Shown one piece after another: positions 2,671-61,202 of a DNA stretch of 64,000 nt (position 1 is the stretch's first letter; the number at the start of each line of letters is the position of its first letter). This DNA is from Blasia pusilla (Eukaryota), in contig CM114271.1 in NCBI GenBank assembly GCA_050084515.1, forward strand, positions 1,550,001 to 1,614,000, in the 5' to 3' direction. Below the pieces are notes generated by a model. The model made no database searches and was not told the origin of the DNA. It worked only from the letters and a program-made list of their open reading frames with translations. The translations under genes were made by a program, and so were the position numbers.

Positions 2671-2743
2671 TTGATTGTGAGAATTAGCATTCAGAGATTG
2701 GTTTCTGAGGGTCTGAGGATTAGAGAGGAGGGAGGGGCATAAA

Positions 2744-5700
2744 ATGCAGGCCACTGGTGGAGTGTGCCTGAGCGGCGCGAGGGTGGGGGTGAATTGCGCT
2801 CATGTGTTGAGTTTGGCTAGGTCTGTTGCAACAAGAAGGAATGCGGGGTTGAGTTCGGTATTCAAAACTGGTTATCTGTACCCGCATATAGCCCACATTT
2901 CGTCGGTGGTTGGCAAGCAGTCGGCGTTGACAAAGGCGCAGAGAAGTCAGTCGTTTGAGCCAGTAAGGATGTCGTTGGACGGAAATGGGAGCACTGCTGG
3001 TAAACATCTCATCTACTCGTCGCTATCCGAGCTATTTCAGAGATGTAATAAGCATCCGGAACGCCTGGATTCTCTGGAGCAATTTCCATGCGCTGACCTC
3101 TCTTCAGTAGTTTACATGGCAATTTCCGGAGCTGTAGTAACGTTTGGTGAAGCGGAAATTGTAAGAGCTGATGGTGGACTGATTCTATGTCCAGGGAAGC
3201 CTGCCCCACGTTTGAGCGATGCGGCTCAGCTGATTTCCGGTGTGGAAACGTTCGTTTTCGACTGCGACGGTCTGTGAGAGTCTTGAGCACCGAACTTTCA
3301 ATGGACTCTTTCAAAGCGCTGTTTTCGTTACGAACGCGATTGCCCAATTACCGTTTTTTGCAATCGAGATATGATCAATCAATGCCGATGGTTGTAGCAC
3401 TTTAGAGACGGAGCGCTTGCGTCCGTCCATCTGCTCCATGTCGTAGTTCTGAGGATCACTCTGTTCCGATTGCCCATTTTTATTTGAATAATGCAGGAGT
3501 GATCTGGAAGGGAGACACACTTATAGAGGGCGTTCCTGAGACGCTCGACCTTCTTCGGTCCTTGGTAAGTCCCAGAATCCAAAGGTGCTCATTTCTCAGT
3601 CGTGGTAGTTGCAGCATATTACATGCTCAGACTATGTCAGGAACGCTTATGATCTGTGACAAGAGTTGAGCGTGCGAACATCATGACGAGTAGCTTTCGA
3701 TTGCCAATTGAGTGGACTGACATGTGTGTTGTGACTCCACAGGGCAAAAAGCTCATTTTCGTTACCAACAACTCCACAAAATCACGCAAGCAGTACGGAA
3801 AGAAATTCGAATCCCTAGGCCTGGATGTCAGTGAGGTAAATTCAGCTCAAAGTTGTGTAGAAGCTTTGAAGGAAGCTGAAAAAGTGTAGGCTGGAGCATC
3901 GCAAAATTTGTATTGGCTGTTTTTCCAGGGAATGTACAGGACTGGACACTGCAGGGCAGCTGAGCACCTTCATCACAGAAAACGTCTATTTTCTTTGATT
4001 TCTTTTTCTGAGTCAGACAACAGAAACCTAGACCAAAGTGAAGCGATGAGATGCTAGGCCTATTTCAATTATCCTTCTATGGTCTGGGATGGGAGGATTC
4101 TTCACAGTTCCGGCAGGAGATAAGAGAGCCAGAGTCTCACCATTTTACATTTTAGATCCCTTAGGACGTGCAGCACGTCTTCGGGACATCGCCAAGCACT
4201 GTATTCCTTTATCATACAGAAGACATTTTGAGCAGGAATTTGAGACTCCTTGATGCAGGAGGAGATATTTTCATCGTCGTTTGCGGCTGCCGGGTACTTG
4301 AAAGCTACCAACTTCCCTGCTGAGAAGAAGGTGAAGACTGAATGCTTATCCTGAATGAAAACCAATTCTCTCTTCTAGTTGTGTGGAAGCTCCAAACTCT
4401 GACTGACAGACAGACTTGGGTTTCTCTTTCCAGTTTTTGAGTTTGTTGATCGTTTGAGGCTGTGGATTTGCAGTCTGGATACTGGGAATATTCTACTCAT
4501 GAACTTGTCGATTCCAACAGGTCTATATCATAGGTGAGGTTGGAATTCAACTGGAGCTGGCACAAGCGGGTATTCAGTACATTGGTGGACCTGTAATTTC
4601 CTTGCTCCTCCCTTTGAACTTGATTCTTTTGCCCTTTGGGTCCCCCTTACTTCTGTCTTCACAGGCTCCTTCCATCCTTGTACGTTCAATGGATTTTTTT
4701 GTTTATTGCTGCTATCAGTTGATGAATTATCGTATACAACTAGGGTCATTGAGGTTTACTGTTCTACGGGTTGCATGATGATGACAGGAGGATGGTGACA
4801 AGAAGATAGACCTGGCACCAGGAAATTTTATGGAGCACGATCATGATGTACGTCTTTAATCTGTTTCTGGAAGATGTACTCCCTACTTGTGTGCTTGAAT
4901 GAATGCTTTTCCATGCTTGACCACAAGTAGGTCCTCTTCGGTCATTCTTCTCATGGTTCTGTGATTTCCAACTCTATCGTGGTCAGATCTTTGAAGCAAT
5001 GGTTTGAAGATGTAACCCACAAGATGTTCATTTCTTTGTTGTAGGTTGGAGCTGTTGTAGTCGGGTTTGATCGGTATATAAACTACTACAAGCTTCAGTA
5101 AGTATTTTTTGACTGCTTCCAAGGGAATCTAGGGTGGAACGTAAGCCTAGAAGTTTTGGTATTTCCTGTCAAGATGCAGAGTGATGAGTTCCTCGTCAAG
5201 ACCCCAAAAAATGGACTTTGTGACCTTATCGATCTGGAATTGTCGTTCATATGTGCATGTATGTTGGGGTTTCTGGCACTGTGTAGTAGTTTGCACTGGA
5301 AGCCATTTCTTAACTGGGAGGAGTTTTCTGTGGCTCACTTCATTGTTGTTATGTGGGTTCCAGATATGCAACTCTCTGCCTAAGAGAGAATCCTGGCTGC
5401 ATTTTTATTGCTACCAACTGTGATGCTGTAACCCATCTCACAGATGCTCAGGAATGGGCTGGTGGGGGTTCCATGGTTGGTGCGATAAAGGGATCCACCA
5501 AGAAAGAACCAACAGTTGTTGGGAAACCTTCAACTTGGATGCTGGATTATTTGGCTGACAAGTAAGTGGGCTATTGATCCAGTCGTTATATGGAGTTTCC
5601 TCCAGGACTACCCTTTGAAATGTCCGAGAAATGTCAACAAGATTGCCTGGTCTTATCTGAGGGTTTGTATGATTGAAGGACAAGAATATAGTAAATCTAC

Positions 5701-6262
5701 TCCACAAGTCCGGCATTATCATCTTGTAGTTTACTTTCATGAACACTGAAGAAGAGCAGGACTACTTGCAGAGACGTCAGGGCTTAGAAAGATGATGAAT
5801 AGTTTACATGGGTGCTCACCATCATTGAACAGGTTCAGCATCAGCAAGTCACAGATTTGTATGGTAGGAGACAGGCTGGACACCGACATTCTCTTTGGGC
5901 AGAATGGTGGATGTAAAACTCTGCTAGTTCTTTCTGGTAAGTGGGACATTTTTCATTTTCTCCAGATATCTTCTATTAGAAGAGTAACAAAACAGCACCA
6001 CATATTTATGAATGCAGCTGGAAACAGATCATGAAATTAGAGTAAAATTATACTCCAATTGTCAGATAGATTTTCAAGGGTTGATGAAGGTCTGGCTTTG
6101 TTGTATAAATACGCTCCCTTACAAAAATCTTGATCACATTTGTTTCTTACAGGAGTCACAGACCTCAAGACACTTCAAAGTCCAGAGAACTCCATTCAAC
6201 CTGATTTCTTCACCAACCAACTATCTGATCTCTTGGCTGCTAAGGAGTTGGCAACTGTATAG
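2744..6262 (+). CDS. PGLP1: Phosphoglycolate phosphatase, chloroplastic (HAD IIA family), 11 exons, ~386 aa
   Basis: Hand-spliced GT-AG exons: 2744-2999, 3195-3269, 3497-3564, 3743-3835, 4259-4330, 4521-4592, 4788-4847, 5045-5097, 5364-5561, 5833-5936, 6153-6262 (1161 nt, in frame, TAG stop). Motifs [38 protein letters not shown] and [18 protein letters not shown] match plant PGLP1. The S/A/R-rich N-terminus resembles a transit peptide. Confidence 0.95.
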
Positions 6263-7726
6263 AGTGGACTCTTTAGGGGTTAGACCCAAGTGTACATTGT
6301 ATTTATTGTGGTATTCGGTTAACTTCAATTCAACACTGGTGATGTCTACCCACTGTCTGCTCCATGCTCTTAAGTGGACTCAACGCAGAGTATTTCAGCA
6401 ACATAGTGAGATCTCAGAGTGAAATTCACAGCTCATTCTTGGTTGGTTGGAAATAGTGATCTCATCATTATTTACAGTTGTTTCAGCTGATCTATTGTAT
6501 CTTCCTGGTTGTCCCCACAATACTCCTCAGGGTTTCTTACCTGGACCTCATATGCTGATTCTTTCAGGCAACCTGGGTCACTTGCCCAAAAGAATTAGAA
6601 GAGAGCTAAGGACCTCTCTCTTGGGTGTTTGTGGAGCTTGTACCACAAGAATTGTCCATCATAGCAGGGAAATTTCCATTATGTTGGTCATATAACAGAG
6701 CATCTACCTAGACTGTTTTTTTGTGAGCTCATTTCATGTTGGATTCCATAATTGTGACAGGTGTCGAAAGGTTTCATACAACACGTGTGATGATTTTTGA
6801 TACAGGTTAGGTTTTCATCAGATGAGGCGGTCAGAAAGAGGGAAAGATTCAAATCAGATTTGTCAACAGGAAAATTTCTGGTAAAAAACACGTGATTGAA
6901 ATCCATGTTGGAAAGAGCCACTGAAAACGAGTTCGGGAAATTTTCACCCCAAAAATTGAACTCCCGACTTTATTTTGGCAAAATTTAATGTTCTCTCCAT
7001 TTTGTGAGATTCTTCCATTGTTCTTTTCTCTATCTATCCCTCCACCCTTGAACCCTATGCATAGGTTGAGCTACGAAATACTAATGGATTATAGATGCCT
7101 CTCATTACTCTTTCCGTGATTAAAGTGGTGCTCATCTCATAAAATTTAAAGAATCCTCCTTAAGGTGAGATACCCCACCTAAGAGGTTTCTTTTGGAAAA
7201 CTAGTTTAAATGAGATGTGTGGCATAAAGGAAAATTCCTGGCTTGAAAAATTGGGTCTAGAGGAAGCTTTGGCAGGATACTCACATGACAAATTTCATAA
7301 GAAAATCTACAAGAAAATTTAGATGGAATGGATATATGTATGAGATTGTAATAGAGCCCTTGTAAGGCTTCATTTTCTTGCAAGTTGTAAGGCTTTAAAA
7401 ATGAGTCCTGTTTCCTGGATTTTTTTTTCTAACCACTGAAAAACAATTTTTTTTTATGGTAACAACTTCCTAAACATCTTCTTAGTGTTCATGACAATAG
7501 CTATGACCTCATGGGAGGAGGATAACTTCTTGATTTGTAAGAGTCTCTCTGCTTGATACATGACCCTTGGACAACAAGATAATGTTTCCACAATGCGGGC
7601 AAAGAAATTTTTTTCCATGGATAGTATGATTATGAATTTGATGCATCACCTTACGAATAATTTATATGTTTTTCCGATGTTTTATCATTTATAGTGTTTG
7701 AAAAGTGTGAAGAATTTTTTCTTAAC

Positions 7727-7760
7727 ACTAGTAGTGTATAACTTGTGCCTTGCACTAGAC
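7727..7760 (-). mobile_element. Decayed Helitron-type 3' terminus
   Basis: Minus strand ends in CTAG|T, preceded ~12 nt upstream by a degenerate hairpin (plus strand cttgtgc-ctt-gcactag). Confidence 0.45.
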
Positions 7761-8130
7761 TAGACAACATGCATCCCACAAACTATAATTATATTCTCCG
7801 CATTATGTGAACAAAATTTTCTTGTTTTCCTATTATCATGTATCAAGGGGATAGGTGTTTACAAGTCAAGAAGCCAATATCCAATAATAGTATAAATAAG
7901 CGAAAAAAAAATTGTGGCCAGATTTAACTTAGGCGGAACTATGTTGTGGCCAAATTTAATATAGTTTGCACCCTCCACAAGACTAATCTTGTTGCACAAA
8001 AACTCGAGAGATTTTCTTGTTGGTCCCAAAGATTTTCTTGTTGGTCATAGTATGAGAAATGTTTTCTTGTTGCCATGTGTTAAGCATGCAAGTGTTTGCA
8101 AATGAAGAAGCCAATCTCTAATAATAGCAT

Positions 8131-8160
8131 ACTAGTGTATGTTCGTTTGATGTACGAGTT
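8131..8160 (-). mobile_element. Decayed Helitron-type 3' terminus
   Basis: Plus strand actagtgtatgttcgtttgatgtacgagt: a CTAG|T end on the minus strand with a degenerate subterminal hairpin. Confidence 0.4.
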
Positions 8161-9413
8161 TAAATAATCTATCAATAGGACTAATGTTTGATTAACTCCC
8201 AAAATTTTCAAGTGATATTTTGAATAAATTTTACATGATTCATTGGTTGAGAGATTGAAAGATCCTATTGGTTTTGTATGCTAGGTATTAAAAGGAGGAG
8301 ATTAAAAAATGAAGGGACACTCTCCAATAATAATAATAATATTAGTATGCAGATAGATTTTGCCCCCACATAAGCCCTATTTTACACACTACTATTTATT
8401 TTTCATCACACATGTCGAACACAAGAAGAGGTGGACAAATCAAGAAAAATTATCATCATGTCATGTTACTAACAATATTAGGATAATTCTAACATTATGA
8501 AGCCTTGTATAAAACAATCTTAAATTTTTTTTAATATGAAGTTAAAGAGAGTATGGATAAATTTTTTTCTTAGCATTCCATATATGAGGTTTTTTTAAAT
8601 TATTATTCTTAAATTATTCCCTATTTTAAGTTATTAAAGAGAGAAGCTATTATTGGGTTCTTAAATTAATTTTAATATTAAAAAATTATGACAAAATAGA
8701 TTCTAGAGTAAGTTTTTTTATCTCTTCTCTTTCTTGACTTTTCCCAATCTTCCTTAATAAAAGGAAATTTTGAGTTTAATCATGAGGAAATTTTAACTAT
8801 ATCTTGGAAAAAAGTTGAATATGATGGGTTAATATGAGGAGAGGGAATAGGATAACGATGGGATAAAATATTATTTAAAAAAAAGATAGCAATGAATTGA
8901 TTTTTAAGAAATGACGAGATGGGAGCAAGGTTGCACACAGACAAAGTCCGTGTCCATGGACATGTCTATGTTCGTGCAAGCGCAGGTACCTGCGCTCGCA
9001 CCAAGTCTGCCTCAGAGCCGGCCACCTAGATCTCCGATGATGGAGCCTGCGCTTGCTCGAACAAGAATTGTAACACATTTCCAAAGGTACTCGTAGTACA
9101 TGGAAGACATGGTAATTCATTGATTTTGTCCTTTCTAAAGTATCGAACCAGAATATTTGAGATCAAATTTCCATCGTTGAAAATATTCATACTTGAATAT
9201 CCAACCGATAAAGTTTTCAAATCATATTTTATATGGCTGAAAATATTTGATAAAAATAGGTAATCGTAAGTTTTTTCCATTGTTAAAATTTCGATTGATG
9301 ATTTTTTTCATTAAAATTTTTAGTTTCCATTCCCATAACCCAATACGTGACTTACAACAGTTATAGTCCCTACTAATGGCTTATTAATTTCACGTTTATC
9401 TCTTAGGCTCTTA

Positions 9414-9910
9414 CTAGTAGGATGCCCGCGTGATTTACAGGTGCAAGAGGGAATGATATGCAAGTACATATTTTGGAAAATTTAACAAATTATTTTTTAT
9501 TTCATTCAATTATTTATTTATAAACCACATTTTTGTGTACTTTTTGTCCTTATTTGAATGTCCGTCATTTCCAATTGTAATGTGGATGGAACTTCTATGG
9601 CCCACTCTAGATACTGCTACGAACAATTGACCATGTGAGAAGATGGGAATAGATGAATAAGTTTTTACTTTTTGCACTGTTGGACCTTGAGACTTATTAA
9701 TAGTTTATTGCAAAATTTAGACGAATAGGGAATTAAACCTACGTAAGTCAAAAGGAAAACTGGAGTCAGATGCGATCAATGGGATACATGGAATAAAAAA
9801 TTGATCTCCAATATGTTTCCCCATGATGATTTTTGGATGTAGAAGATGTTGCATGAAACCATGAATCACCAATCTAGTCCCATTTGCTTGTCCCTTCAAA
9901 GGACAAGTAA
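9414..9910 (-). mobile_element. Helitron 3' remnant with PIF1-type helicase C-terminus (pseudogenised)
   Basis: Minus-strand translation across frameshifts gives ANGTRLVI...FPIRLNFAI/TINKSQG...PIFSHGQLFVAVSRV (PIF1 helicase C-terminal motifs), followed by a GC-rich degenerate hairpin and a CTAG|T end at 9414. Confidence 0.88.
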
Positions 9911-10165
9911 ACAGGACTGAGTTGGTCATTATGTATAGGCAATCGTACATCAAAATATCTCTAATAAGATCTTGGATTAAAGATTCCAAAAAAATAAAGG
10001 AGTACAATTCGTTACAAGGCTACGATAGACATTACGAAAGAAATATTTGTCTCTCTCTCAAACCTCCTAGTGAGAGGCTTGGGTTATCCAAATATCAAGA
10101 GGGCCATTGCCTATTGCTTCATTGTCAATGAGAGTAGGTTCAACAAAGAGAGAATTGTAGAAAAC

Positions 10166-10255
10166 TTTAGCATAACTAAAGTTAGCGTTTAGGGTTTAAA
10201 ATAAACTAAACCCTAAACTGAAATTGCTAAAGAAGTTAACTTTAGTTATGCTAAA
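10166..10255. repeat. Short nested inverted repeat (foldback)
   Basis: Perfect 19-bp IR: tttagcataactaaagtta (10166-10184) / taactttagttatgctaaa (10237-10255). Inner 12-bp IR: gtttagggttta (10187-10198) / taaaccctaaac (10207-10218). Confidence 0.85.
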
Positions 10256-10258
10256 AAA

Positions 10259-11100
10259 TTAGCGGCTTCGCAATCGAACTAAAACCCTTGACGTACTGTC
10301 GATAGAAGTTCGCCAATCCCATGAATGCACAAACTCAACTCATATCTGTAGGGCGTGGAATGCGTGAAATAGCATCTACCTTTGTCTATTGCACACCAAG
10401 GCCCCCTGGATATATCGTATGATCCAAGTACTCAATCTGGCCATAGAAGACCTTGCACTTGCATGGATGTAGCTTCAGCCCATGTAAGTGCAATCGTCGA
10501 AATACATCCTCTAGATGTCGCTCATGCTTCTCAACCATGGCGCTAAAGACTACGATATCATCAATATAACACCTAGCAAAATGGAGACCTGCCAAGATCC
10601 TATCCATGACCCTCTGAAACTCAGCCGGGGCATTCTTTAACCCGAATGGTAAGAAGCGCCACTGGTACAAAAAATCCTTCCCGTGAGGATTGATGCCTCA
10701 AAATACCGTCTACTGCATGTCCTCCAATCTGATAGGCAGCTGATGGTATCCGACTCGCAAATCCAATGAACTGAAGACCTTTGCATGCCCAATCGCATCA
10801 AAGATCTCCTCAAGGGTGGGCATGGCATACCTATCGGACTTCGTCTGCAGATTGATAGGTCGGTAATCTCCACACATATTCCTATCCGTCCAGTTGCCAT
10901 GCACATCCTTTTGGCGGGCATGACAGTGGCATATGCATACTCTCCATGCGACATCTCCACTAGTCCTACTCCAACCAAGTCCTCGCTCCTACTCTGAATC
11001 ATAGCCCTCTCCATGTCACTGTACCTGTAGGATCGTCGGAAGATCGACGTGTCACTCGACAACTCAATGCGGATCCTTGGACCCTTCAGCGTATCCAAAT
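10259..11100 (-). pseudogene. Gypsy reverse transcriptase (frameshifts and stops)
   Basis: RMCGDYRPIN-like motif (NMCGDYRPIN), MPTLEEIFD, LDLRVGYHQL, YQWRFLPFGLKNAPAEFQRVMD, CYIDDIVVFS, GLKLHPCKC, FMGLANFYRQYVKGF. Breaks off at ~10259. Confidence 0.92.
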
Positions 11101-11499
11101 CATGCATACTAAATGCAAAACAACTCCTATAACTCCTAAGGAACTGGTGTATCCGGCACCGCTCTCCTCCTGTCAACTTAAGGCCCATATCTGGCTCCCA
11201 AGTCTCCATCGTGACTACGGTAGGACTCTCTGGCGCGGGTGTCGGTGGTTGGTGCAACCCCGTCTCAGACAATAGAACTCTCATCTCCACGTGCAGTACC
11301 CACACCACACTCGATGCTGTGGCTATCATCTCTGGCGTACCTGCAAAACATCCCAAGAAGTCCAAGGGTGACTAATCTGATCACTCTTGGGGTGTCAATC
11401 TCCTTGGATCTCGCCCCTAGCCGCTGCCTCAACCGTCTCGGTACGCATGGGGCTCACCAACGCAACATCTATGATATGTTGCATCCTCAAACGACGCTA

Positions 11500-12457
11500 A
11501 TCAGCTACTCCTAAGCTGAAAATCCATGTCAAGAAGTTCAGGTTCATCGCCTGACCCAAGACATGATGTCGTGATGCCTCTGATAGTGATGGTACTACCG
11601 TCACTTCTGTGGGGAATCCCATCGCTTGCTCTCGCTCATCGACGTTGGGCTCCACCAACCTCTATACTTGGTCATCCCAAACCAAGCCAGGTCCGGCCTC
11701 CTTGAATGCATAGGAAGTGGGGAAACTCACCAATGTGGGAAAGGCTGCACGTGGCCTGCCAATCTTGTTGACCATAGTCAACAGCGGTCGATCATCTAGC
11801 ATGTGATCGACGACTCGTATCCAATATAGAATCCACCAAAAAATCGGAGGGATGCTCCACTCTTGCATAAGCCTTCCGCAACACCTCGTGTGGTACCAAG
11901 TTGGTCCATCAAAGACGCGGGCAATGTGTTCGTAAACCCACACTCGCTGCATCTAAGAACACTGCCAAGCCGATCCATGCGCGCACTTGATGTGCACTCG
12001 TGACCATACGGGACCTCGAATCGCCCAAAATTGGCACATTCTCCAAAATGTATGCTGGAGAACGAGGTTGATGCTCATGTAAATGTCGCAAGATCCGCAT
12101 CATCTCCCAAAACAACATGGACCGAGTGTTAGCTACCCCGCTACCTCGTCCAACACTCGGTTGGCCCTGATACGGCCAACCAACAATAACCAAGCCTATG
12201 ATCCCTATCCGCTCCAAGTCTTGCGCCCCCAAAAATGAAATGTCCCTCGGTAGGGAACTCTAGTAACCCTAAATGGCGGACGGAGACAACAAGTTGGGGA
12301 AACAGAGGCGTAACAACGCCACATAGTGAAGTGAAGCACGCCTTGCAACATCATCAATCTCCACATACATGTACTGCTGCATGCGCACTCCAGCATGCAA
12401 AACAATAGCTAACCCAGTGCTGATCCCTCCAAAGAGATCCAACACCCGAATACCCAT
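11500..12457 (-). pseudogene. DNMT3-like C5-cytosine methyltransferase domain embedded in the Gypsy pol region
   Basis: Motifs I-X in canonical order: I IRVLDLFGGISTGL; II YVEIDD; III RDI; IV GWPYQG (PC changed to PY); V RSMLFWE; VI ILENV; VII DAASVG; VIII HCPRL*WTNL; IX EREQAMGFP; X RHHVLGQAM. Several stops and one frameshift near 11800. Confidence 0.9.
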
Positions 12458-12879
12458 TCTCTAGGATGCACCACACAATCGGGTGGTGTCCAAAGGGGTC
12501 AAAGTAGCACTCCTGCCTACCTGGGGTTCCTCTCACCCGTCACACTCTAGTGCAAGCATCTCGCTCCACGGGGTCTGCACATGCTCAGTGCATAAGCGTC
12601 GAAGCTCTTCAGTCGAGCCCCAAAGTGGCACCTCTCCTCCAGGGACTGATGCGGCTACCATGACACTCCTCTCCATAGAAATGTCAGGAATTGGAGTATC
12701 CTCTGCATGGACATGTCCCTCAATCAAATCACGAAGCCAAGTGATGGCAGTGCTAAATGCTGCTAAGGTCGCCATCTCTCCTGGCCGTCGTTCGATCACT
12801 GCACATGTGAATCGAATGGGTAATGAGCTAAGGCGCCCATCACCGACTGCCATCTTGGTATGTTTGATGCTGACTCCTC

Positions 12880-13212
12880 CTAGTAATCCAAGGAAAATCC
12901 CATCGGGTATAACACTGCTCCACCAACCAAGACGTCGTAGGACTCGGCATCTATCACTATCGCCTTGGCTCGTACAAGAGACTCATCTGTAGGATGTCCT
13001 GGGTGAATCCTCACCACGACCTCATGTTGAGTGATATACTGTGTGGTACTCACTCCACCGAAGGATGTCTGTATCCGGTATGGACAAGGCTCCACATCGG
13101 CCCTTGTCAATCCCAATCCTCTTAATGACGGTTTCCCCAACATCAGGGGTTGCGCTCTTGAATCCAACAAGACGCGCTGTGGACTAAAAGCTCTACCTCC
13201 AGGACTCACCAA
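12880..13212 (-). pseudogene. Gypsy aspartic protease
   Basis: VLLDSRAQ (LDSGA motif with G to R) and C-terminal YDVLVGG motif. Confidence 0.8.
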
Positions 13213-14107
13213 CGGGACGACCTCTCCTCAGTTATCCAGCAATAAAACACCAGGAGAAGCCATGGCACGCTCTATCGCGGATCTAGCGGGCATCTCCGCC
13301 ATCCTAGCAGCCGCAGCCTGCTATGAATCTGACGTGGACGGCCCGAGCATCCGCTCCAAGGGCAGGTCCATCACCTCCTCTACAATCACCTCTTAACGTG
13401 ATGTAGGAAATCAAACTCCACGCTCACATAGCCTAGCAGCCAGTCAAAAAACCTCGGCGGGCGTACCTCCCAACGTCATAACATCGGAAGCAGAAAATAA
13501 AGGAGCGCAGTACACAACGGTGGCCCCCCAACAACGTTCTCGACACATACCCCTCCTGAGCATCACCAATAGGAGTCTTCGCGCTGGCTTCTCCCATCGC
13601 CCTCCGTGCCTACACACCAACAACATCACCAACTCTCCAATAACTCTGATCAAGACCCATCGATGGGGTCCTCATCGCCTTGGACAACATGTGAAAGACT
13701 GAGGAAGCCTAATCTGTTTCCTGGCTTCCCCTCGCTGCGGATCCAACTCTGCGGCTGCTCCACGCGTCACAACTGCGGCGGCCTCCATCTAGGCAGTCCC
13801 GCACATCCAACCAGGATCCTCCATATCTCTGGCTGCTCCATATGATGTCGATGCCACAGATCCCGCATCGGGTAATCTCAATGCCATAGCGGCAATCTTC
13901 TCATGTAGTTGATGTATGAGCAGCTATCCTAGCCTCACGCCCAGCGTCTTCCTCGACGCGTCTAGGTGGTGGGACTCTATCTTCTCCACAAGCAGCTCCA
14001 CCACCATGTCGGGCAGCTCCACTTCCTCGTCCTCCAATGGGACCACCTGGTGAACGATATCTAGGCCCACCCGAACCGGCTATTCGCTTTGGTGCCCTCT
14101 TTGGCCC

Positions 14108-15262
14108 TCAATCCGGACGTAAATCGGGATGTAAATTGAAACACCTGGCGCGTGAATGACCATACCTATGACAATAGTCACACTGATAATCTCCTAGTGC
14201 AGCACTATCTCCTCCTCCATGCTGAGGCACACGTCCATGACCATGATGAGTGCAATCACGCTGATGATGGGCTCCACCACATAACCAACAAGTAATCATA
14301 GGCGGCTGCTGATGAGCCACATATGATGGTGTAGATCTCTGTGGCACGGCCTCCCGATATCCTCCTTGAGCTCATGGTACCACAGTTGACCTATCTCGGA
14401 GTCCACATTGTTGCACTGGTGGTGTAGACAATCGTGACTGCTCTCGCCCAGAACCCATGGTGGCTACGCTCTCCTTCGACATATTGCGCTCAATGTTCTT
14501 GGCGGTCTTAAAAACATCTCTCAACATAGGGGAGGTGTTCATAAGAAGTACCCCCTCCCGCACTCGTGCCCGCAGGGTCTGGTTGGGCATCGCGTACCAT
14601 GACTGGATAGCTTGAGCCTCTGTCACTCCCTGAGTGACATTGATCAACCGACGCAAGCGAGTGTAAGCCTCATGAAAACTCTCACCCGAGCGCCTGTGGA
14701 AGTCATGGATGCTCCGCAATTTCTCCGTCCGTACCCCCTGGTAGCTCGTCCTCAACTCAACGAAGAACTCAACCACGGGGTTGAACCTAGGACAAACCCG
14801 ACTAGATGGTGCAACTGTTCCAGTGCGAGTGACCCCTCCTAAAACATCACTAGTGGAAGAGGAAATAGCCTCTCCTGACTCCTCCTCCTCATCTGGGAAC
14901 GGCTCCGTCCATGACACATAGTGTGGGTCATAGTAGAGTCGCTATGCCTCAATCTCTTGGGCATGCCTTTGGGAGAACTCATGGTAATCGTCCATGGGGA
15001 CCCCCTCTAAATGCTGGAACATACCATTCCATGTTGTAAACGGGTTGAACTCTCTAGAATTCCTAGCCTGTTGTGAGTCACACAAACTCCTAAACTCCGC
15101 AATGAAGTCATGTAGTTCTTTTGTTCCTACAACACCCGAAAACCGACGCGGTCCTCTACCTCGGTCGTCCATCTCGTACGCCCAACTAGTAGGACCACTC
15201 AATATATACGGTGGATCACTAACACACTCCTCTATACACTCCCCCTTGTTTGAAGACGACAT
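14108..15262 (-). pseudogene. Gypsy gag with two zinc knuckles
   Basis: Retrotransposon gag-like segment (FHRRSGESFHEAYTRLRRL) followed by CWLCGGAHHQRDC and CDYCHRYGHSRARC. Confidence 0.82.
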
Positions 15263-17003
15263 AGAAGGAGATTGAGGTGGTCTTTCGCGTGGAGATCCTC
15301 AAAACCTCACACCACTCCGGGTAAACTCTCCAGAGCTACTCTCAGATCCACTACCTCGCCTCTCAAAATCCTGAAAGGACGCCGTGATGACCCTCATGCC
15401 CCTCTCACACAATCACTCTCAATCTCGTGAGTAATCCCTCAATCACTCAAACTAAACATGCGGCACTCAATCTTCACTCTCTCACTAAGACATGTGCTGT
15501 ACGGCAACAAGTAGTGTGGTGCGGAAAATCAACCAATTTATCATCTCATCGACAAACAATCCTCAACTCTCGACATCCCACACAGGTCTATGTCGCCTAA
15601 ATCCATACATCCTCGATGCTCCTAGCATCAACACAAAACCCAACATCCCCAATAACTTCCTAATATCCGAAAATCCCTCACACGTGCAAGGTAAGATACT
15701 AGAATGGATAACATGACAATAATGTCGATGTCGCTCCTCGGCAATTGCAAATCTCAACCCCAACTCGATCGTGAAGACAACTCCTCCAATCAGCAAGTTG
15801 TACTCCTCGTACTGACGCTGCTCAAACCTCCTCGATGTGCGGTGCAGGTCCAGTGGTCAGGTACAGCATTGGCAGCACAGAACGGCTACAAACGGCACGA
15901 CACTCGAGAATGGGGTACGGTGCGGCCACGAGGGGCACGACCCAGAAATTGGCGGCGCATTGCGGCTACGGGCGTCACTACACAGTACTCGATCATCGTC
16001 GAGCGGCTACCAATCACAACATAGCAGCATGAAATAAAAACTCAAACACCATAACCCAAGATCATCTGCCATCATTTGGTTGATGACGAATTTGCGATGA
16101 CGGTGGTGGCCAAAACAAAGTACGTGGTGGCGACATAAGTCAGAGAATCAACGGTTGTCGTGGAAGACCCTCCACTCCGTAATGGCGGCAATGGCAACCA
16201 AAGGGTGGACAACGGACGAACGCGACTATGAGCAGCGCTAGGCGGCCGACGGTGGACCGTTGACGGTGACGGTTGACCGTTGATGGTGACGGTTGATAAT
16301 TGATGGTGATGGTTGACCATCAATGGTGGACCGTTGACGGTGACTATGAGGGCAATGGCCACCGCCGGCGTGGCGGCTGGTTTAGGGTTTGAACAATTTA
16401 ACCCTAAAAATCGCCTAGCAATCGTAGTTTTGCAAGATTGACCATAAATTTTTTCTCGAAACTCCAAATTGCGCACCGTCTATTGCACAACATGCATAGC
16501 TTGACGATCTACAACAATGTCAAAAAATATTTAGAATCGAACATTCCAGTAAAAATTGACAGGAATTGTTGTAAAGCCAAATGTCTCCTTCTCCTACACG
16601 AAATTTGGTAGCGCTTCCGCGCTGATTTCTCCCAACGAAAATATAAAACCTATGAGAATATAAATCAGCAAGCTTCATGGTGATCCCAAGAGCACTGGTA
16701 TGGGGCAATCCACCCCCATACTTAATCCCTATAGAAAATTGGGCAGCGCTTCCGCGCGCCACTCTTCCACACGAAAAATCGACAAAGGAAATATCACAAG
16801 TAAGCGGCTCTTGCTCCGGTGAGTACTCCCATGAGTCAAGAAGCGGGGAACACTGTTCCCTAACCTGCACGAAATATTGAGCAACCAACGAGCTCTCCCA
16901 TGAAGCTCTCTCACTCACTCATTCTCTCTTTGTAAAATAAGATCCAATCTCTCTCACAACATCATAGTTCTCACATGTGTGCACTCACATATGTCTCTCT
17001 CAA

Positions 17004-17450
17004 TGTCAAACCAAACCCACTCTCATAATGAGAGGCTTGGGTTACACACACAAGGCAAGCAAGACCATAGCTTTGCCGCCTCATGCCAAGAGGTTCAACG
17101 AAAAAAGAATGAGCTTTCAAGCTCCCTCTCCTTGATGTATACCCCTCCCCTCTCCCAAGCTCTCTCCATGGTAACCTATGCTCCCAAGTCATCTCCTTGG
17201 CTCTTGACATGATGTAAGAGATCAAGGGCCACTTACCAAAAAATAGAAAGTTGATCATATACTGAAAATGATACTTACCTAAAATAGGAAGTTCCTCAAT
17301 ATGACTCCAAATGAGCCGAAACGAAGGGAAAACCTACTATCTTAGGTTTTTCAGGGCCTCAATAGGTCATCCTCGACCACTAAGCCTTTCCTCCACTACT
17401 CACAAAGGTGCTCTACTAGATCTCATCGATCTATCCTAAAAGACGTGATA
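17004..17450 (-). repeat. Putative 5' LTR (~447 bp) of the DNMT-Gypsy
   Basis: Homologous to 51340-51783, which starts TGTCA and contains a matching TGACA end. This copy starts TATCA (G to A). The outer end is firm because homology ends there; the inner end is inferred from the TGTCA/TGACA inverted pair only. Confidence 0.6.
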
Positions 17451-19755
17451 TTAAGGTTAGGGTTAGGGTTGCTTGTACATACCCTATATAATTGAGAAGG
17501 GGATCAACCTCCACTAATTCTCTCATTGCAAATTTTGTTCTCCATGGTGGTGTGTGAGTGTGAGAGCCGTTTCCCACCTCTTATGCTTCTTTAGCAGTTT
17601 TCCACATGGTATTAGAGCGATAAGAGAACATCACTTGAAATTCTTGGTGTTTGAGGAGAGAAGAGAGGCAAGAGGAGGCACTGTTTCAATTTGGGAGAAG
17701 AAAATTTTGTTTAGAGATTAATGGGTGCAGATTTCAGGTGGAACTTTGATGGTGATAAAACTTTGGAGGCATTTTTGAATGCTTTCCGGTCGATTTAGCC
17801 ATCTAGGTCCGCAACGGCTAGAACAATGCCCAAGGTTGTTTCCAGTCGTCTTGTATAGCTCGTTGAGAGCTTTCGAACGCATCCAAAATCGCTTGATTCA
17901 GACATATTGAGCTCTTGCAGTTATAATTTAAGTGTAGGAAAGTGTAATTAATGAAGAAAAGTTGTGTAGTTTGCTCTCTATAGACTAATTTCGACTAGTT
18001 CTTTCATAAAGTTGATCAATTTTGGCAAATTTCACGTCGATTTCTATGTAGGAGTGGTCTATGCTTCAATTGGAGAAGTAGGGAGCCAGAAATTACATTT
18101 TTGTGAGTAAAATCGTTCGTCATGGAGTATTCCTCAACAACAATCACAGATGAGAAGCTAGATAAGTAGAATAACAATGTTTGGAAGTTTCGCATGAAAC
18201 AATTTCTCATGGATCAAGAACTATGGGATGTTGTCACAGGTGATGAAGCCAAGCCAAAAGGTTTCTCAATAGACTTGAATGTTCGCGCTTGGAACAAACG
18301 CGCAAGGCAAGTAATCCAATATATTTCAATAACAATTAGTTCGCCAATGATAGGTCACAATCAAGATGTTGATATTCTAAAGGAGACCTGGAATGCATTG
18401 GAAAATCTGTTCCAGATATCTACAAAGGCGAGAATGCTTGAATTGAAATAAGAATTGAACGAAGTGAGGAAAGGATCGTAGAGAATCAATGATTATATTT
18501 TGAGTATTAGACATATTGTTGAACAGTTGAATAACATTGGAGTGAGAGTAGAAGATGATGATCTCATTTTGTTCACTCTTCAAGGCCTTCCAAGGATTAC
18601 AAGTCCTTTGAGACCTCTATCTCTGTGAGAGAAAAGTATCCAATCTTTCAAGAGTTAGTCCCTCTGTTAATTAGTGAAGAGATGCGCCTAGTGGGCAACG
18701 GTAGCTCGTCTAGTGTGCAAGAGAGTGCGCTATTTGCAGGGTAGGGATTGTGAGAAGCTTCCGTGGTTGAAGTGGATATCAAGTATATGAAGGAAGAGGC
18801 ACTAAATATAACGTCACTCAATCAACTACGAACCAATACCAAACACAATCACAAGGTGGTGATGGTGGAAACCGTTGGGATTGAGGTTAGCTACAGAGGG
18901 TCCTTGGATCTTGCAATTAGTGTGGGATAAAAGGTCACTATGAAAAGTTTTGTTTCAAGAAGAAGGCAAATATGAGAACAAGAGCCTTACAACAACAAAA
19001 CTATATAGAGCAACAACACCAAGAACAACAACATTTACAAACGGAGCATCTCTTGGTCATGACTCATCATATGGGAGCAATGGTCAAGAAAGACTCGACA
19101 ACATATTGATTCATTGATTCTGGTCCATCAAATCATGACCTCACAAGCTAAATGGTTTAGTAGTTTAGAGATGGTGGAAGATCCTGCAATTATGCTCAGA
19201 GGAGATGACATTCAACATCATATCACGCAAACCGGTAAAATTCTAATAACATCAGATGGTCTTTGTGCTCTTGGAAATATTCTCTATGTTCCTACCATTG
19301 CAAAAAACCTGATCTCTGTAGGACATATAGTAGAACAGGGTTATCAAGTGAAGTTTAACGCATATGGTTGTTTCATTGAAACAATGGATGATCAAACTAC
19401 GATAGCCAAAGAAACTAGATCTGGAAGAATGTTCAGATTATATATTTCTATGCCAGAGATTAAAACATCAATGTATGGTGAAACCGGCCAACAAGTCATA
19501 GATCTAAATGTGTGGCATAAAATAATTGGACATATGAATCTTCAAAGATTACAGAGTCTTTCATCATCTAATATAGTAATGTGACTCCCTAAATTAGCGA
19601 GTTCTGCTACATTAGAGGTATGTCCTACTACGTTAGAGGTATGTCCTACTTGCCAATTTGGAAAACAAGCTAGATTTCCTTTTCCAAAGCAAGGTAGGAG
19701 AGCATCCAGGATATTGGAGTTGATCCACAATGATGTGTGGATAACATCACAACAT
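17451..19755 (+). mobile_element. Ty1/Copia element, 5' half (partial LTR, PBS, gag, protease, start of integrase)
   Basis: LTR ends ...ttttccaCA at 17606, followed by PBS tggtattagagc (tRNA-iMet type). Protein motifs: WKFRMKQFL..ELWDVVTG, degenerate CCHC, IDSGPSNH, WHKIIGH..CPTCQFGKQ, LELIHNDVW. Breaks at 19755. Confidence 0.92.
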
Positions 19756-20760: not shown

Positions 20761-21400
20761 CCAAGCTGGAGCTTGACATTTACTTCTTATACATACTTAC
20801 TTGATGTACATAATCTCTTGCTGTAAAAAAATGAAAATCTCTTTGAATCTATAGTAAGTGTAAGGATAACAAGTGTAAGGATGTACCAAGCTAGAAATTG
20901 ATATTTACTTGCTGTACATAATCTCTTGCTGGAAAAAAATGAAGGTCTCTTTGAAACTATAGTAAGTGTAAGGATGCACCAAGCTGGTAACTAACATTTA
21001 CTTGCTCTACACAATCTCTTGCTGAAATAAATTTAAGATCTCTTTGAAACTATAATAAGTGTAAGGATAACAAAAGTAGAGAGGGGAAGAAAAGGAAACT
21101 TGAGAGGGTTGTTGTTTTAGGTATGTTATCAAAGCAGAAAACGATATACAAAGGGTTCTACAAAACTCTATTCGAATATTCAAAGCCAAGGTTGGTTTGG
21201 GTTTAGGGTTAGGTGAAGGGTCATCCATTGTCTACATTAATGTTAATTTTTGTTACCACGGATTTAGTGAATTCATACAGAGTGGCAGATCCTAAATTAA
21301 AACCTACCAAGCTTGAACTTCATATTTACTTGTTGTACATAATCTTAAACCACAATGCATTGAAGATCTCTTTGAAACTATAGAAAGGGTAAGGATAACA
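20761..21400. repeat. Degenerate ~95-125-bp repeats inside the CACTA
   Basis: ccaagct...catttactt...aatctcttgctg...tctctttgaaactata..gtaaggat copies at ~20761, 20886, 20979 and 21307. Confidence 0.75.
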
Positions 21401-24199
21401 AAAGAACGGAGGGGAAGAAAACCAAACCTGAGAGATTTGTTGCTTTAGGGTTTTCAGACGGCGAGCAGGATTTTGATTCATTTCCCTTCTTGACTCACAC
21501 AACAACGGTATTCATAAGAAACTAAGAGAATCTGCACTTACAAAGGATATACTTTCTATAAACCAAATCAGAATTTTCTAAACTCAATACTTACGAGCTC
21601 GAGTCCCTTCAGTTTGCCCATCCAAGTCCCTTGAAGCTACATGTGGACATACCCCCACTTTTATTTGTGGGTTTGGAGAGACTAGGGGCCATGAAAGACT
21701 AACTGTCACTTTGCTGCGAATGTACACTTGTCCCAACAAATCCCAATGGCCCATAAGAAAATGTTGAGTCAGAACCTTCTCCTGCACTTGGATAAGGGGG
21801 CGGAGGGCATGGTGCTCCATCCTATCCACACATGGAGATAACACTCTTACATCCTTCATCAACACTATAGACAAGAAATCAGGACTTCACAATCTGAAAA
21901 AACATGCAGAACCAGGAAAGGATAATGGCCACTTTTCGAGTCATCATGAGAAGATAAAGAGTTAAAGAGTCATCATTTCTTACAAATAGAGAATTTGATC
22001 ACAAATAAAAAATGTGGAAAGAAGTTTACACATGGCCTTGCCCATGGTTGGCTTGAAGAACCAAGTTGAATGGGTCCCCATTGCTGTTGACTCCCCATCG
22101 GAGTCAAAGTTTGTGTATGAGGACCCCATTCGGCGTGAGATCCAGATGGTAGAGATGGCTGGGTATTGCCTACCCAAGGGCGTTCTACAAGTCTAGGTTG
22201 CGACCAAGACATGCCTCCAGGCCATTGGCCTTGAGCGGTCATGTGTCCAGCCGTAGGAGTTTGTTGACCCCATTGAGGTCGGGGGGAGGGTATAGGGGCA
22301 ACCCATAAGAGCTATGTGGGCCATGATTCAACATCGATGGCTCACGCTCATGAGTGTACCACCTTGTACCCATTGGTCCATCCCAGTATTGGCTACCACT
22401 CTCTAGCCATGGGGAATATTGCCAACCCATTTCTGATCTCCCACTTTGACCTGAATCATGTGCCTTATAACTCACATGAGATTCGTGGAATTCTCTCCCT
22501 CCAATACCGTGAGCATATGAAAGAGAAATAAAAGTTAGTGTACTATAATATATAAACACAGAGATTGGAAGAATCATGTATCCCACACACAATCTTATTG
22601 AAGATGGTACATAACATATCATTGTAATCACCCTTTTGACTTGGATCCAATGGAATGTCGGCCCACTATCCTTATTCACGAATGGAGGATCAGGTACATC
22701 TTCCTCCTCATCATTCTGGTATTCTGAATCTTCAGTTGGCATATAATATGGATTTTTCATTTTATTATCCTTAAGGCTTTCAAGCATTGAAGGACATGGT
22801 AAGCTCTCCAAGATCTTTGATGTCAATCTTGAACTTTTTCGCTTTTCCACTACCTCTGCCACTATTGCTCTACAACATGAGGCTTTCTTGGATGCCTTTT
22901 CCGGTCTCAGCCTTTCCAAACAATGATTTGATCATCAATTATCTATGTAAGATCATGAAACTCTTATTTTCTACGAATAAGGAAACTACATGCAAGAAGG
23001 AATGGAAAACCATGCAATATTATTGCAATTCACATCTCATGCAAGGTAGTGAACTGCTTACTCTCAGGGAATAGCACCAAGAATTTCTACTGCTCTTCTA
23101 TTGTTTTCCCTTATCTTTCGTGCCCGTTCTTGTTCAATTGGGAGTAGAGCATGAAGGTCCTTATCGAGTAGGTCTGGACTCTCAAATCCATCATCAATAT
23201 AAGAGTTCTCCAAGTTTGAAGAGTTGGTGGGCGTATTAGGATGTCTAAAGTTGTAATATGCAGAGGTGATGTTTCTCTCCCATAAGTCATTGCCTCTCTT
23301 TCAAAACCCTTAGATATTTCTTGCCCCTCTGTGCCCAAATCAGAAGCCACCACATCTTTGCTGAGATCTGCCCCCTCCATGGTTGCACATAGATTTGAAA
23401 GGTGCCCTATAGAATCTAGTCTACTCACACTTGACGTATTACTATTCTCTTTGACTATAGATGCAGTGGAAATCCTATTTTGCATCTCGTAATTCTTTTT
23501 GTGGCCTTGGTCAAGTTCCCTTGTCTGCCCTATCTTATCCTCTTTTTCATGTGCATCTGCATATTTCATTTCACCATCAGAAACAATGCTTTCATTACCC
23601 TTGATATTATCCTCTCCAAGGACATTCTCTACATCACTCGGCAAGGGCCCCCATCTCTCATCAATAAGATCATCATACACCACTTCAAGGCCCAAGCCTT
23701 CAACCCATCAAGAAGTTCCCCACTTGCATCAAGTAGGCCTTTAGAAGCAAGAATAGCCTCAAGGTCTGATCGAGTTCGCCCCTTACCACCTATTGTACTA
23801 CCTTGGAGGGCATATGAAAGGCCCTCCACTCTGAAAGGTTCTGTTGAAAAATTTCGTCAAGGAGTTGAATGAGGAGAGTTATCATGCATGATTGAAAAAT
23901 GCAAAAATCTCACACAAAGGTTAAACCAGAACCATGACTTTTGACTAACTTCTCAAAGCAAACCGCATGTATGTCAAATATTTGAACAAAAGGAAAATTA
24001 AATCTCTAAATTCTCTTTGGAGCTCTCTTCTTCAGAAATCTCTTCTGTGGACACGTGGATGTTAGGGATATTATTAAAATCTCTATTTGCTGTCACCACC
24101 TCTTCAGTAGTGAGCTCTATAGCACCTAGAGTGTTAGCTAGTGGCTCTCTTCTTGATGGCATTTCAATCTGGTCAATTGCAACAGAATGTCCTTCATCT

Positions 24200-44481: not shown

Positions 44482-44490
44482 GGGTAATTC

Positions 44491-44818
44491 TCAAACTCCT
44501 ATCGTTCCGATTGATCACAGCCCCTGCAATTCAGCGTTCCCTACGCATAATCCAGTCACATAAATCCCCTTTCAACTCCTATCGCTCAATTGATCACAGC
44601 CCGCGCAATTCAGCGTCCCCTGCGCACATGCCAGTGACATAAAATCCCCTTTCAACTCCTATCGCTCAATTGACCACAGCCCGCGCAATTCAGCGTCCCC
44701 TGCGCATATGCCAGTGACATAAAATCCCCTTTCAACTCCTGTCGTTCAAATTGATCACAGCCCGTGCAATTCAGCGTCACATGTGCATCATCGAGTGACG
44801 TACAATACCTCTTCAACT
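44491..44818. repeat. 80-bp tandem repeat, 4 units, directly upstream of UGT-A
   Basis: Units at 44491, 44571, 44651 and 44731 (ttcaactcctatcgctcaattgatcacagcccgcgcaattcagcgtcccctgcgca.atgccagtgacataaaatcccct). Units 2 and 3 differ at only two positions. Confidence 0.95.
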
Positions 44819-61198: not shown

Positions 61199-61202
61199 TA
61201 GT

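Follow-up and report, generated by a model that had tools for sequence, protein, structure and literature searches.

A cytosine methyltransferase domain of the DNMT3 type, broken by stops and a frameshift, was located within a decayed retrotransposon in the land plant Blasia pusilla. The window analysed is a stretch of 64,000 nucleotides (NCBI GenBank assembly GCA_050084515.1, contig CM114271.1, positions 1,550,001 to 1,614,000 of the forward strand), and all coordinates are counted from its first letter. The domain occupies positions 12463 to 11500 on the minus strand. This region is very probably the DNA methyltransferase (DNMT) domain of a dead, 3'-truncated copy of a Ty3/gypsy-type family whose members all carry a DNMT3-type domain between protease (PR) and reverse transcriptase (RT), i.e. 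an element of the streptophyte kind named 'Gypsy-DNMT3' in bioRxiv 10.64898/2026.05.21.726589. The identity of the element itself is hardly in doubt. This kind of element has already been published; its occurrence in land plants is what is added here. An earlier interpretation made from the letters of the window alone, referred to below as the sequence-only reading, had proposed an intronless, non-permuted DNMT3-like domain between PR and RT of a Ty3/gypsy-type element, and this was confirmed by profile searches, fold comparison and collinearity with relatives.

The methyltransferase domain and the copy that carries it

The domain belongs to copy 1, the parts of which were read from stop-to-stop open reading frames (ORFs) and three-frame translation. 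In the following list and below, P numbers denote protein relatives and L numbers denote metagenome loci.

10260-16035, minus strand: copy 1, decayed DNMT-carrying gypsy-type element (gag-PR-DNMT-partial RT), 3'-truncated; from tblastn, blastn and read evidence
14108-15298, minus strand: gag with two zinc-knuckle-like motifs; from homology to P0187, motifs read from the ORF
12814-13320, minus strand: aspartic protease (PR) region; from homology to P0004
11500-12463, minus strand: DNMT3-like C5 cytosine methyltransferase domain, broken; from translation, phmmer, profile and alignment
11201-11499, minus strand: DNMT-RT linker, which in the close family contains a conserved in-frame stop; from three-frame translation
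10260-11200, minus strand: N-terminal two thirds of RT, distributed among several frames and ending abruptly at 10260; from RVT_1 and homology to P0186

The DNMT domain was read from 12463 to 11792 in one frame and from 11799 to 11500 in the next, with stops written as X, and the bounds given by the sequence-only reading (11500-12457) were correct within 6 bases. The domain contains no introns, and its whole length aligns with intact relatives with the motifs in the usual linear order. Motifs I, II, IV, VI, VIII, IX and X were compared singly, and the stretches between them align without rearrangement. Undamaged in copy 1 are motif I (LFGGIS), the glutamate of motif II (YVEID) and motif VI (ILENV). 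The catalytic cysteine of motif IV is replaced by tyrosine (GWPYQG versus GWPCQG in relatives), and damage was also observed in motifs VIII (HCPRL*W, the asterisk marking a stop, versus HRPRLWW), IX (EREQAMGF versus ERERAMGF) and X (LGQAMN versus LGQAMD). From the earlier claim of all ten motifs in order, the linear order was retained, and of the seven motifs compared singly IV, VIII, IX and X proved to be damaged.

Five in-frame stops were found in the domain (two after SPSAI and one each in PRL*W, HAR* and DDQV*R), together with one frameshift near 11800. Because of these five stops, the frameshift, the Cys to Tyr replacement and the RT cut off at 10260, copy 1 is regarded as dead, and it is almost certainly non-functional. 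The sequence-only reading was silent on the degree of decay and on the RT truncation at 10260, and its suggestion that the enzyme could methylate the complementary DNA (cDNA) or the insertion site does not hold for the window copy, a dead fragment unable to methylate anything.

A phmmer search with the 224-residue N-terminal piece of the domain (stops as X) against a library of 1.84 billion protein representatives yielded 833 matches at E<=1e-3, 350 at E<=1e-10 and 9 at E<=1e-30, the best at 2.3e-52. Motif IV, PYQ in the window, has the catalytic PCQ in 59 of the 80 related loci and in every named relative that was aligned. The DNMT domain in the window is real, complete in extent and DNMT3-like.

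The assignment to a DNMT3-like, non-permuted class, with DNMT3A/B/C as the nearest solved structures, is supported by profile comparison and a predicted structure. In a single-sequence search of the PDB the best chains were DNMT3A catalytic domains (E 8e-5, collinear). A family profile built from 13 relatives matched DNMT3A at 5.5e-18, DNMT3B at 1e-16 and DNMT3C at 6e-16, with all DNMT3A/B/C chains spanning E 5.5e-18 to 6e-15, versus 7e-8 for tobacco DRM, 1e-6 for M.HhaI, 1e-4 for DRM2 and above 1e-3 for DNMT2; DNMT1 was absent among the matches of this profile at E<=0.01. The match to DNMT3A comprised three collinear stretches (motif I, motifs IV-VIII and motifs IX-X). The match to DRM was confined to profile positions 240-370 (motifs I to about VI), which align with the C-terminal part of the DRM chain, the placement that a permuted enzyme should give. 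Furthermore, an AlphaFold model of the relative P0185 had a mean pLDDT (predicted local distance difference test) of 71, with 85-91 across most of the domain, and its top Foldseek matches were all DNMT3A/B/C (E 6e-17). Target-normalised TM (template modelling) scores were 0.74-0.82 for chains comprising the catalytic domain alone, at 19-22% sequence identity to the solved chains. The PWWP, ADD and plant DNMT3 companion domains were not found by Pfam in P0004, P0182, P0187 or P0053, and this lack of reader domains fits a captured catalytic domain and not a host-type DNMT3 gene.

The flanks named by the sequence-only reading, PR and RT, were upheld by homology. Upstream of the DNMT domain, residues 975-1142 of P0004 match 13320-12814 at 35.5% identity; the PR probe from P0004 also matches P0053 at residues 850-917, in its Asp_protease_2 stretch (796-888), and the active site reads D-S-R in copy 1 versus D-S-G in P0004. 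Further upstream, residues 9-354 of P0187 match 15157-14120 at 45% identity in tblastn, covering gag, the zinc-knuckle-like motifs of which lie at 14290-14252 (C-x2-C-x3-H-x4-C) and 14182-14141 (C-x2-C-x4-H-x4-C). The gag and PR calls rest on homology to relatives because Pfam gave nothing significant there: scans of the window PR, gag and C-terminal integrase stretches returned no significant match, with a weak zf-C2H2_10 match alone on gag, and zf-CCHC was significant in the relative P0053. Downstream, RVT_1 was matched on 10697-10386 (E 1.7e-21), and residues 696-970 of P0186 match 11200-10260 at 62% identity.

The Marchantia models P0187 and P0186 are collinear with copy 1 from 15157 to 10260 (tblastn), the blastn match between copy 1 and the metagenome element L060 ends at 10264, and at 10259 RNA and DNA reads of paralogues continue into unlike sequence. 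At the other end, homology between copy 1 and copy 3, a second copy described below, goes on upstream to 17448, and the real 5' end of copy 1 is not fixed. Three RNA runs with the same species label contained no reads at >=95% identity on 11506-12258, a result uninformative on the family since the copy is decayed; RNA reads elsewhere on copy 1 were mostly partial matches from paralogues. DNA-run depth at 11255-11505, 13263-13513, 14769-15019 and 16777-17500 was 5-20x that of neighbouring bins, indicating that these parts of the element are far more repeated in the genome than the DNMT core. Two read joints (17059/10136 and 10155/17122) had sides of only 20 nt.

Domain order, relatives and ends of the family

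In order to place the domain among its relatives, the 150 best representatives were sorted with probes for gag, PR, RT, RNase H (RH), integrase (IN) and PHD. The order of the window, PR-DNMT and/or DNMT-RT, termed type A, was found in 12 of the 150, and a second order, RH-DNMT and/or DNMT-IN, often with a C-terminal PHD finger and termed type B, in 57. The remaining 81 showed the DNMT alone and were mostly short fragments. P0053 consists of one uninterrupted ORF of 2188 residues with zf-CCHC, Asp_protease_2, DNA_methylase, RVT_1, RNase H and integrase according to Pfam, and the Marchantia model MARPO_0091s0058 has DNMT, then RVT_1, then RNase H. Type B comprises P0010, P0018, P0019, P0021 and 53 other representatives; the order RT-RH-DNMT-IN was found by Pfam in P0010, P0018 and P0021, with a PHD finger in P0010, and one type B protein is labelled 'pol' in Scenedesmus sp. 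In tblastn, P0187 (gag-PR-DNMT), P0186 (DNMT-RT-RH) and P0053 were collinear on the window and on L060, L011 and L033.

A quick maximum-likelihood search in IQ-TREE was performed for 95 DNMT rows, excluding rows with a split match or not spanning probe positions 8 to 300. All 49 type B rows were split from all 20 type A rows by one branch (SH-aLRT 95), and the window domain grouped with the Marchantia and Calypogeia rows in a 9-row clade (SH-aLRT 100).

The elements have the gag-PR-RT-RH-IN order of Ty3/gypsy with an RT closest to Ty3, and in the window RVT_1, RT_RNaseH and rve were found on copies 1 and 2. The RT-RH of P0053 was nearest to Ty3 itself (7q5b, Ty3 Gag-Pol, E 2.3e-91; 4ol8, 5.3e-72). 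A phage-integrase match, indicative of the tyrosine recombinase of DIRS elements, was obtained in none of the Pfam scans, Integrase_H2C2 and rve being present instead.

The family ends are split direct repeats of a DIRS-like layout (A1...B1-A2-B2), paired with a DDE integrase, which is an unusual pairing. Direct repeats of 307-342 nt lie about 8.7 kb apart in L011, L033 and L060, and an 87-95-nt segment B stands on both sides of the 3' repeat (B1-A2-B2), with none beside the 5' repeat A1. L060 and L033 each have two B segments, one on either side of A2, and L011 has a single one before its contig runs out. The A1...B1-A2-B2 layout recurs in the distant loci L072 and L079. Two identical direct long terminal repeats were not observed, the repeats being split in L060, L033, L072, L079 and window copy 2. 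The split-repeat ends lie at L060:10236-10785, L033:10380-10951 and window 57785-58346. A 5' repeat A1 of copy 1 was not found, a sensitive blastn search of the A2 and B segments of copy 2 against the 5' regions of copies 1 and 3 having given only 12-nt chance matches.

Named relatives of the window type are from Closterium species, Calypogeia fissa, Marchantia polymorpha and Sphagnum troendelagicum. Ten models were found in Marchantia polymorpha, among them Mp_8g17980, Mp_4g09160 and MARPO_0091s0058. The land-plant models (Marchantia, Calypogeia fissa and Sphagnum troendelagicum) share 46-59% identity with the window domain, and unbroken ORFs with the same domain order occur in liverworts, a Sphagnum moss and Closterium. 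At 90% identity, P0187 belongs to a cluster of 18 member sequences and P0181 to one of 11, suggesting several near-identical copies. No named Klebsormidium nitens relative was among the cluster look-ups.

A scan of metagenome contigs gave 384 pattern matches, 307 of which encode a relative, and 80 loci were kept, most of them decayed. The domain is free of stops in 6 of the 63 loci that cover >=300 of its 320 positions, and among the 80 loci motif IV reads GWPCQG in 51 and GWECQG in 8. Selection was estimated by the Nei-Gojobori method from pairs of metagenome copies with dS>0.15. Median pairwise dN/dS was 0.55 for DNMT (1983 pairs), 0.39 for RT-RH (810) and 0.63 for gag-PR (1121), values that are well under 1 yet not low, that come from non-independent pairs, and that are raised because of decay after insertion. 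For the window copy versus others, dN was 0.34 (DNMT), 0.22 (RT-RH) and 0.56 (gag-PR), with dS saturated. A fair reading of these values is that constraint on the DNMT is intermediate between that on RT and that on gag.

A conserved stop and the possible role of the enzyme

In the closest family the DNMT forms the C-terminal domain of ORF1 (Gag-PR-DNMT), with RT-RH-IN in the same frame behind a stop. The sequence-only reading had described a polyprotein domain inside pol; a polyprotein domain it is, and in the closest family it stands upstream of the conserved stop, ending the gag-PR frame. In L011 the gag-PR-DNMT frame meets a single stop, after which RT follows in the same frame. With this junction as query, the stop written as X, and counting loci that span the junction in one alignment, a stop (TAG in 35, TAA in 16) aligned with that of L011 in 51 of 51 close-family metagenome loci, with RT in the same frame in all of them. 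Outside the count were one locus aligned in two pieces and 9 with partial cover. The stop is directly followed by CAACCC in 47 of the 51, these six bases being nearly invariant. The stop-bearing loci fall within L001-L062, L066 and L075 (e.g. L011:11474-11482), and in the 16 with TAA this codon may have arisen from TAG through G-to-A decay.

Expression of pol by read-through of this stop is considered somewhat probable. Subfamilies sharing just 48% protein identity have the stop, and in one of their loci, L037, no other stop interrupts the aligned stretch. Furthermore, the ends of five Marchantia models and of one Calypogeia model lie no more than about two residues from the stop position, and two further Marchantia models extend into RT without some residues around the stop, as if these had been spliced out by the gene predictor. 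The read-through consensus of plant viruses is UAG-CAR-YYA, with which the context CAA-CCC agrees in part only; the context of L037 is CAA-CCA. A possible, though doubtful, alternative is that the stop is not one of programmed read-through, being either an inherited defect of one dead master lineage or bypassed by expression of pol from a spliced or subgenomic RNA or by re-initiation. The partial agreement with the consensus would suit this alternative, and other observations likewise pull away from read-through as a feature of the family: the 51 loci come from few metagenome data sets, and probably from one or few host genomes; the majority of these copies have undergone decay; in more distant relatives one ORF runs through, with a sense codon at the stop position in 8 of 8 distant loci spanning the junction (25-32% identity); and in copy 1 the stop could not be located, the linker being too diverged and frameshifted to align. 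Retention of the stop across diverged subfamilies, termination of the Marchantia and Calypogeia models at this position, the unbroken frame into RT and the near-invariant bases behind the stop speak for programmed read-through.

For the intact relatives, methylation of the element's own cDNA, or self-methylation, is tentatively preferred as the function, although the case falls short of an even one. In active relatives ORF1 would be made in excess, and RT-RH-IN would be made only through occasional read-through of the stop. The methyltransferase would enter the particle along with Gag and would methylate the new double-stranded cDNA of the element, or the fresh insertion, and the new copy would thus already be marked on entering the genome. 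A more far-reaching version would have bryophytes, including Marchantia polymorpha, harbour a young and possibly active lineage with a DNMT3-type enzyme at Gag level, at the end of ORF1 and upstream of a programmed read-through stop, which is packaged and methylates its own cDNA; taken as a whole this appears distinctly unlikely.

It is somewhat unlikely that the domain of intact relatives serves otherwise, be it by placing 5-methylcytosine (m5C) on the genomic RNA, by working in trans, on host chromatin or at the target site, or by engaging host methylation factors, as a partner like DNMT3L or as a decoy, so that silencing is blunted. A position in ORF1, at Gag level and upstream of the stop, fits a particle-associated or RNA-facing role as well as a cDNA role, and DNMT3 enzymes are oligomeric in the solved structures matched by Foldseek. 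In the main text of de Mendoza et al. 2018 (PMC5890265), the KnitGypsy-Dnmt3 domain of Klebsormidium nitens gave no methylation in yeast, a result termed inconclusive by its authors as human DNMT3B failed too, and RNA methylation is raised for another class. On the other hand, the catalytic PCQ, ENV and R-x-R are kept in intact relatives, which argues for catalysis and not for a pure decoy; the fold is nearest to that of the DNA-acting DNMT3 enzymes, with DNMT2, an RNA enzyme, far lower; and the DNMT domains of SymbioDIRS methylate CG de novo in yeast, and self-methylation of cDNA is proposed in the same paper (PMC5890265).

Besides the yeast result for KnitGypsy-Dnmt3, several points count against the reading of the region as part of a 'Gypsy-DNMT3' family with a methylating enzyme. 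Copy 1 is without function. With PF00145, the check proposed by the sequence-only reading, the window domain was borderline, lying at or just below the cut-off of 22 bits with 22.0 and 20.7 (E 1e-4 to 3e-4), and intact relatives scored above it with 27.7-46.9 bits. The DNMT tree contains no host DNMT3 or DRM sequences and therefore does not bear on the origin of the domain. Direct kinship to KnitGypsy-Dnmt3 is argued from common architecture and type of repeat, not from sequence, and the dN/dS ratios given above, raised by decay and drawn from non-independent pairs, belong here as well.

Two further explanations are extremely improbable. The first is a one-off event, in which a host DNMT3 retrocopy or fragment landed in this gypsy copy; it draws on the single domain-bearing copy in the window, copies 2 and 3 being without that part within the window. 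Against it stand the same order in P0053, P0004, P0138, the Closterium and Marchantia models and the 80 metagenome loci, the 80% identity of copy 2 to the domain-bearing L060, and a constraint on the DNMT similar to that on other domains. Capture of the domain by copy 1 alone is ruled out by the identical domain order in many independent sequences; other family members carry the same domain in the same place, as they should if it is no captured retrocopy, which had been the position of the sequence-only reading. The second, a pseudogene of the host's own DNMT3 adjoining transposon debris, accounts for a stretch that is DNMT3-like and broken and founders on the lack of introns, the continuity with gag-PR upstream and RT downstream on one strand, the collinearity with single proteins holding all these domains, and closest relatives that are all retroelement proteins.

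Other features of the window and comparison with known systems

Two further copies of DNMT-gypsy elements were found in the window, in opposite orientations.

57785-61200, minus strand: copy 2, 3' part of a second member, of another subfamily; from blastn to L060 and Pfam
61198-60633, minus strand: copy 2 RT; from collinearity with relatives
60550-60062, minus strand: copy 2 RNase H; RT_RNaseH E 3e-37
59942-58923, minus strand: copy 2 integrase; rve E 2.3e-10
near 58700-58590, minus strand: copy 2 decayed PHD-like C-x2-C...C-D-R-C stretch; by eye, with no Pfam match there
57785-58346, minus strand: copy 2 3' split repeat, with B1 at 58346-58260, A2 at about 58259-57871 and B2 at 57870-57785; from self-comparison
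51342-57774, plus strand: copy 3, only the 5' region of a copy-1-like element, reaching roughly 100 nt into gag; from blastn

Copy 2 aligns with L060 at 7359-10791 with 80% nucleotide identity over 3490 aligned positions, and L060 has the DNMT upstream; a Copia insertion truncates copy 2 on its 5' side at about 61203. Its B1 and B2 segments are 96.5% identical over 87 nt, and the A1 repeat of L060 matches 58098-57880. The pieces of copy 3 at 51342-52329, 52800-53217 and 57257-57774 match copy 1 at 17448-16439, 16034-15704 and 15709-15194, respectively, with 74-80% identity, and copy 3 is split by a Copia insertion at 53218-57256. The end of copy 3 (57774) lies 10 nt from the 3' end of copy 2 (57785), an arrangement that would fit insertion of copy 2 into the start of gag of copy 3. 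The 5' region of copy 1 matches 52800-57774 in inverted orientation; an inverted terminal repeat within a single element was weighed as the cause and rejected in favour of the separate, opposite-strand copy 3.

CpG observed/expected was 0.75 and 0.57 in the copies versus 0.94 in the neighbouring gene region, a depletion expected for methylated repeats. On the sense strand CpA is over-represented above TpG (1.38-1.56 versus 1.14-1.20 in window copies 1 and 2; 1.47-1.52 versus 1.17-1.18 in L011 and L060); this asymmetry is of the G-to-A type and may simply be coding composition.

One Copia family is present as three copies or fragments (53218-57256, 61203-63908 and 17451-19755) that are 79-89% identical, two of them within DNMT-gypsy copies, with RVT_2 at 54810-54073 (E 2e-49). 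Beside the truncated RT of copy 1, 9510-10019 on the minus strand resembles by eye the C-terminus of a PIF1/Helitron-type helicase, with no Pfam match at E<=0.001. A cluster of UDP-glycosyltransferase ORFs occupies both strands at 42544-48509, and the ORF at 47880-48392 has its highest identities (54-61%) to liverwort proteins (Riccia, Marchantia, Plagiochasma and Calypogeia). Transposase-related ORFs with DUF4371 (E 1.6e-7) and DUF4218 (E 7e-13), at 32925-34310 and 25228-25713, are probably from DNA transposons. Exon-like ORFs at 5750-6034 and 2717-3277 belong to a putative HAD-type phosphatase gene, by eye phosphoglycolate phosphatase-like, and at 20777-21449 a 144-nt unit is repeated in four direct copies with 60-78% identity to a reference copy.

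Methylation is the host's main weapon against transposons, and a transposon with its own de novo methyltransferase is therefore a paradox; the question of what purpose the enzyme serves dates from 2018. The published cases are from a dinoflagellate and a charophyte alga, which are hard genetically, and Marchantia polymorpha is a tractable model. In land plants this kind of element is represented, in Marchantia polymorpha, Calypogeia and Sphagnum, by long ORFs and by clusters of several nearly identical copies. The conserved stop would amount to a statement on dosage, in that the enzyme would be made with Gag and not with RT. Models such as Mp_8g17980 carry a DNA methyltransferase label and could be miscounted as host DNMT genes. 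If the reading is true, land plants would have a transposon-encoded writer of DNA methylation that could also mark the host methylome, and Marchantia genetics could be applied to it.

Leaky stops are familiar from retroviruses: in the murine leukaemia virus type a leaky stop lies between the frames, and in the avian type PR is in the gag frame. The DNMT-gypsy family resembles leaky-stop retroviruses and retroelements in that its downstream enzymes follow an in-frame stop without a change of frame; in those retroviruses the stop follows gag, whereas here it follows PR and DNMT, and read-through is putative. Plant DRM enzymes are likewise distant relatives of DNMT3 found in streptophytes, but their motif order is permuted and their profile E values are far weaker (7e-8 to 1e-4). 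Host DNMT3A/3B/3C and plant DNMT3 (Yaari et al. 2019, PMC6453930) are alike in best profile or fold match, linear motif order and domain length; they differ in having companion reader domains where the relatives described here have flanking retroelement domains. Element-borne DNMT3 is not mentioned in the text of that paper as available.

SymbioDIRS-Dnmt3 of Symbiodinium (PMC5890265) similarly has a DNMT3-type domain in a polyprotein, two domain orders and A-coding-B-A-B repeats. Two domain orders coexist here as well, PR-DNMT-RT and RH-DNMT-IN. In contrast, SymbioDIRS is a DIRS element with a tyrosine recombinase, and the elements described here have a DDE integrase with an H2C2 zinc domain and an RT-RH closest to Ty3.

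The closest parallel in architecture is KnitGypsy-Dnmt3, the name under which this kind was first described. It is a Gypsy element of K. nitens that has DNMT3 inside pol, a DIRS-like repeat arrangement and a Ka/Ks<0.2 (de Mendoza et al. 2018, PMC5890265), the paper to which the sequence-only reading had correctly traced transposon-borne DNMTs. A full-text literature search, with subscription papers, figures and supplements beyond its reach, found no paper on DNMT-carrying elements in land plants. The main text of PMC5890265 does not contain the word Marchantia and names K. nitens as the only streptophyte, and the accessible text of later papers places transposon-borne DNMT3 just 'in streptophytes and dinoflagellates' (PMC12344493; bioRxiv 10.64898/2026.05.21.726589). 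The earlier remark that such elements are not characterised in land plants agrees with this as far as papers go, and gene models from Marchantia, Calypogeia and Sphagnum are already in public databases. Both KnitGypsy-Dnmt3, as described in the main text, and the family reported here have an intronless, non-permuted DNMT3-type domain in a gypsy-type polyprotein, A...B-A-B repeats, signs of purifying selection and a streptophyte host; that host is an alga for KnitGypsy-Dnmt3, whereas here it is a land plant, with relatives in liverworts and Sphagnum.

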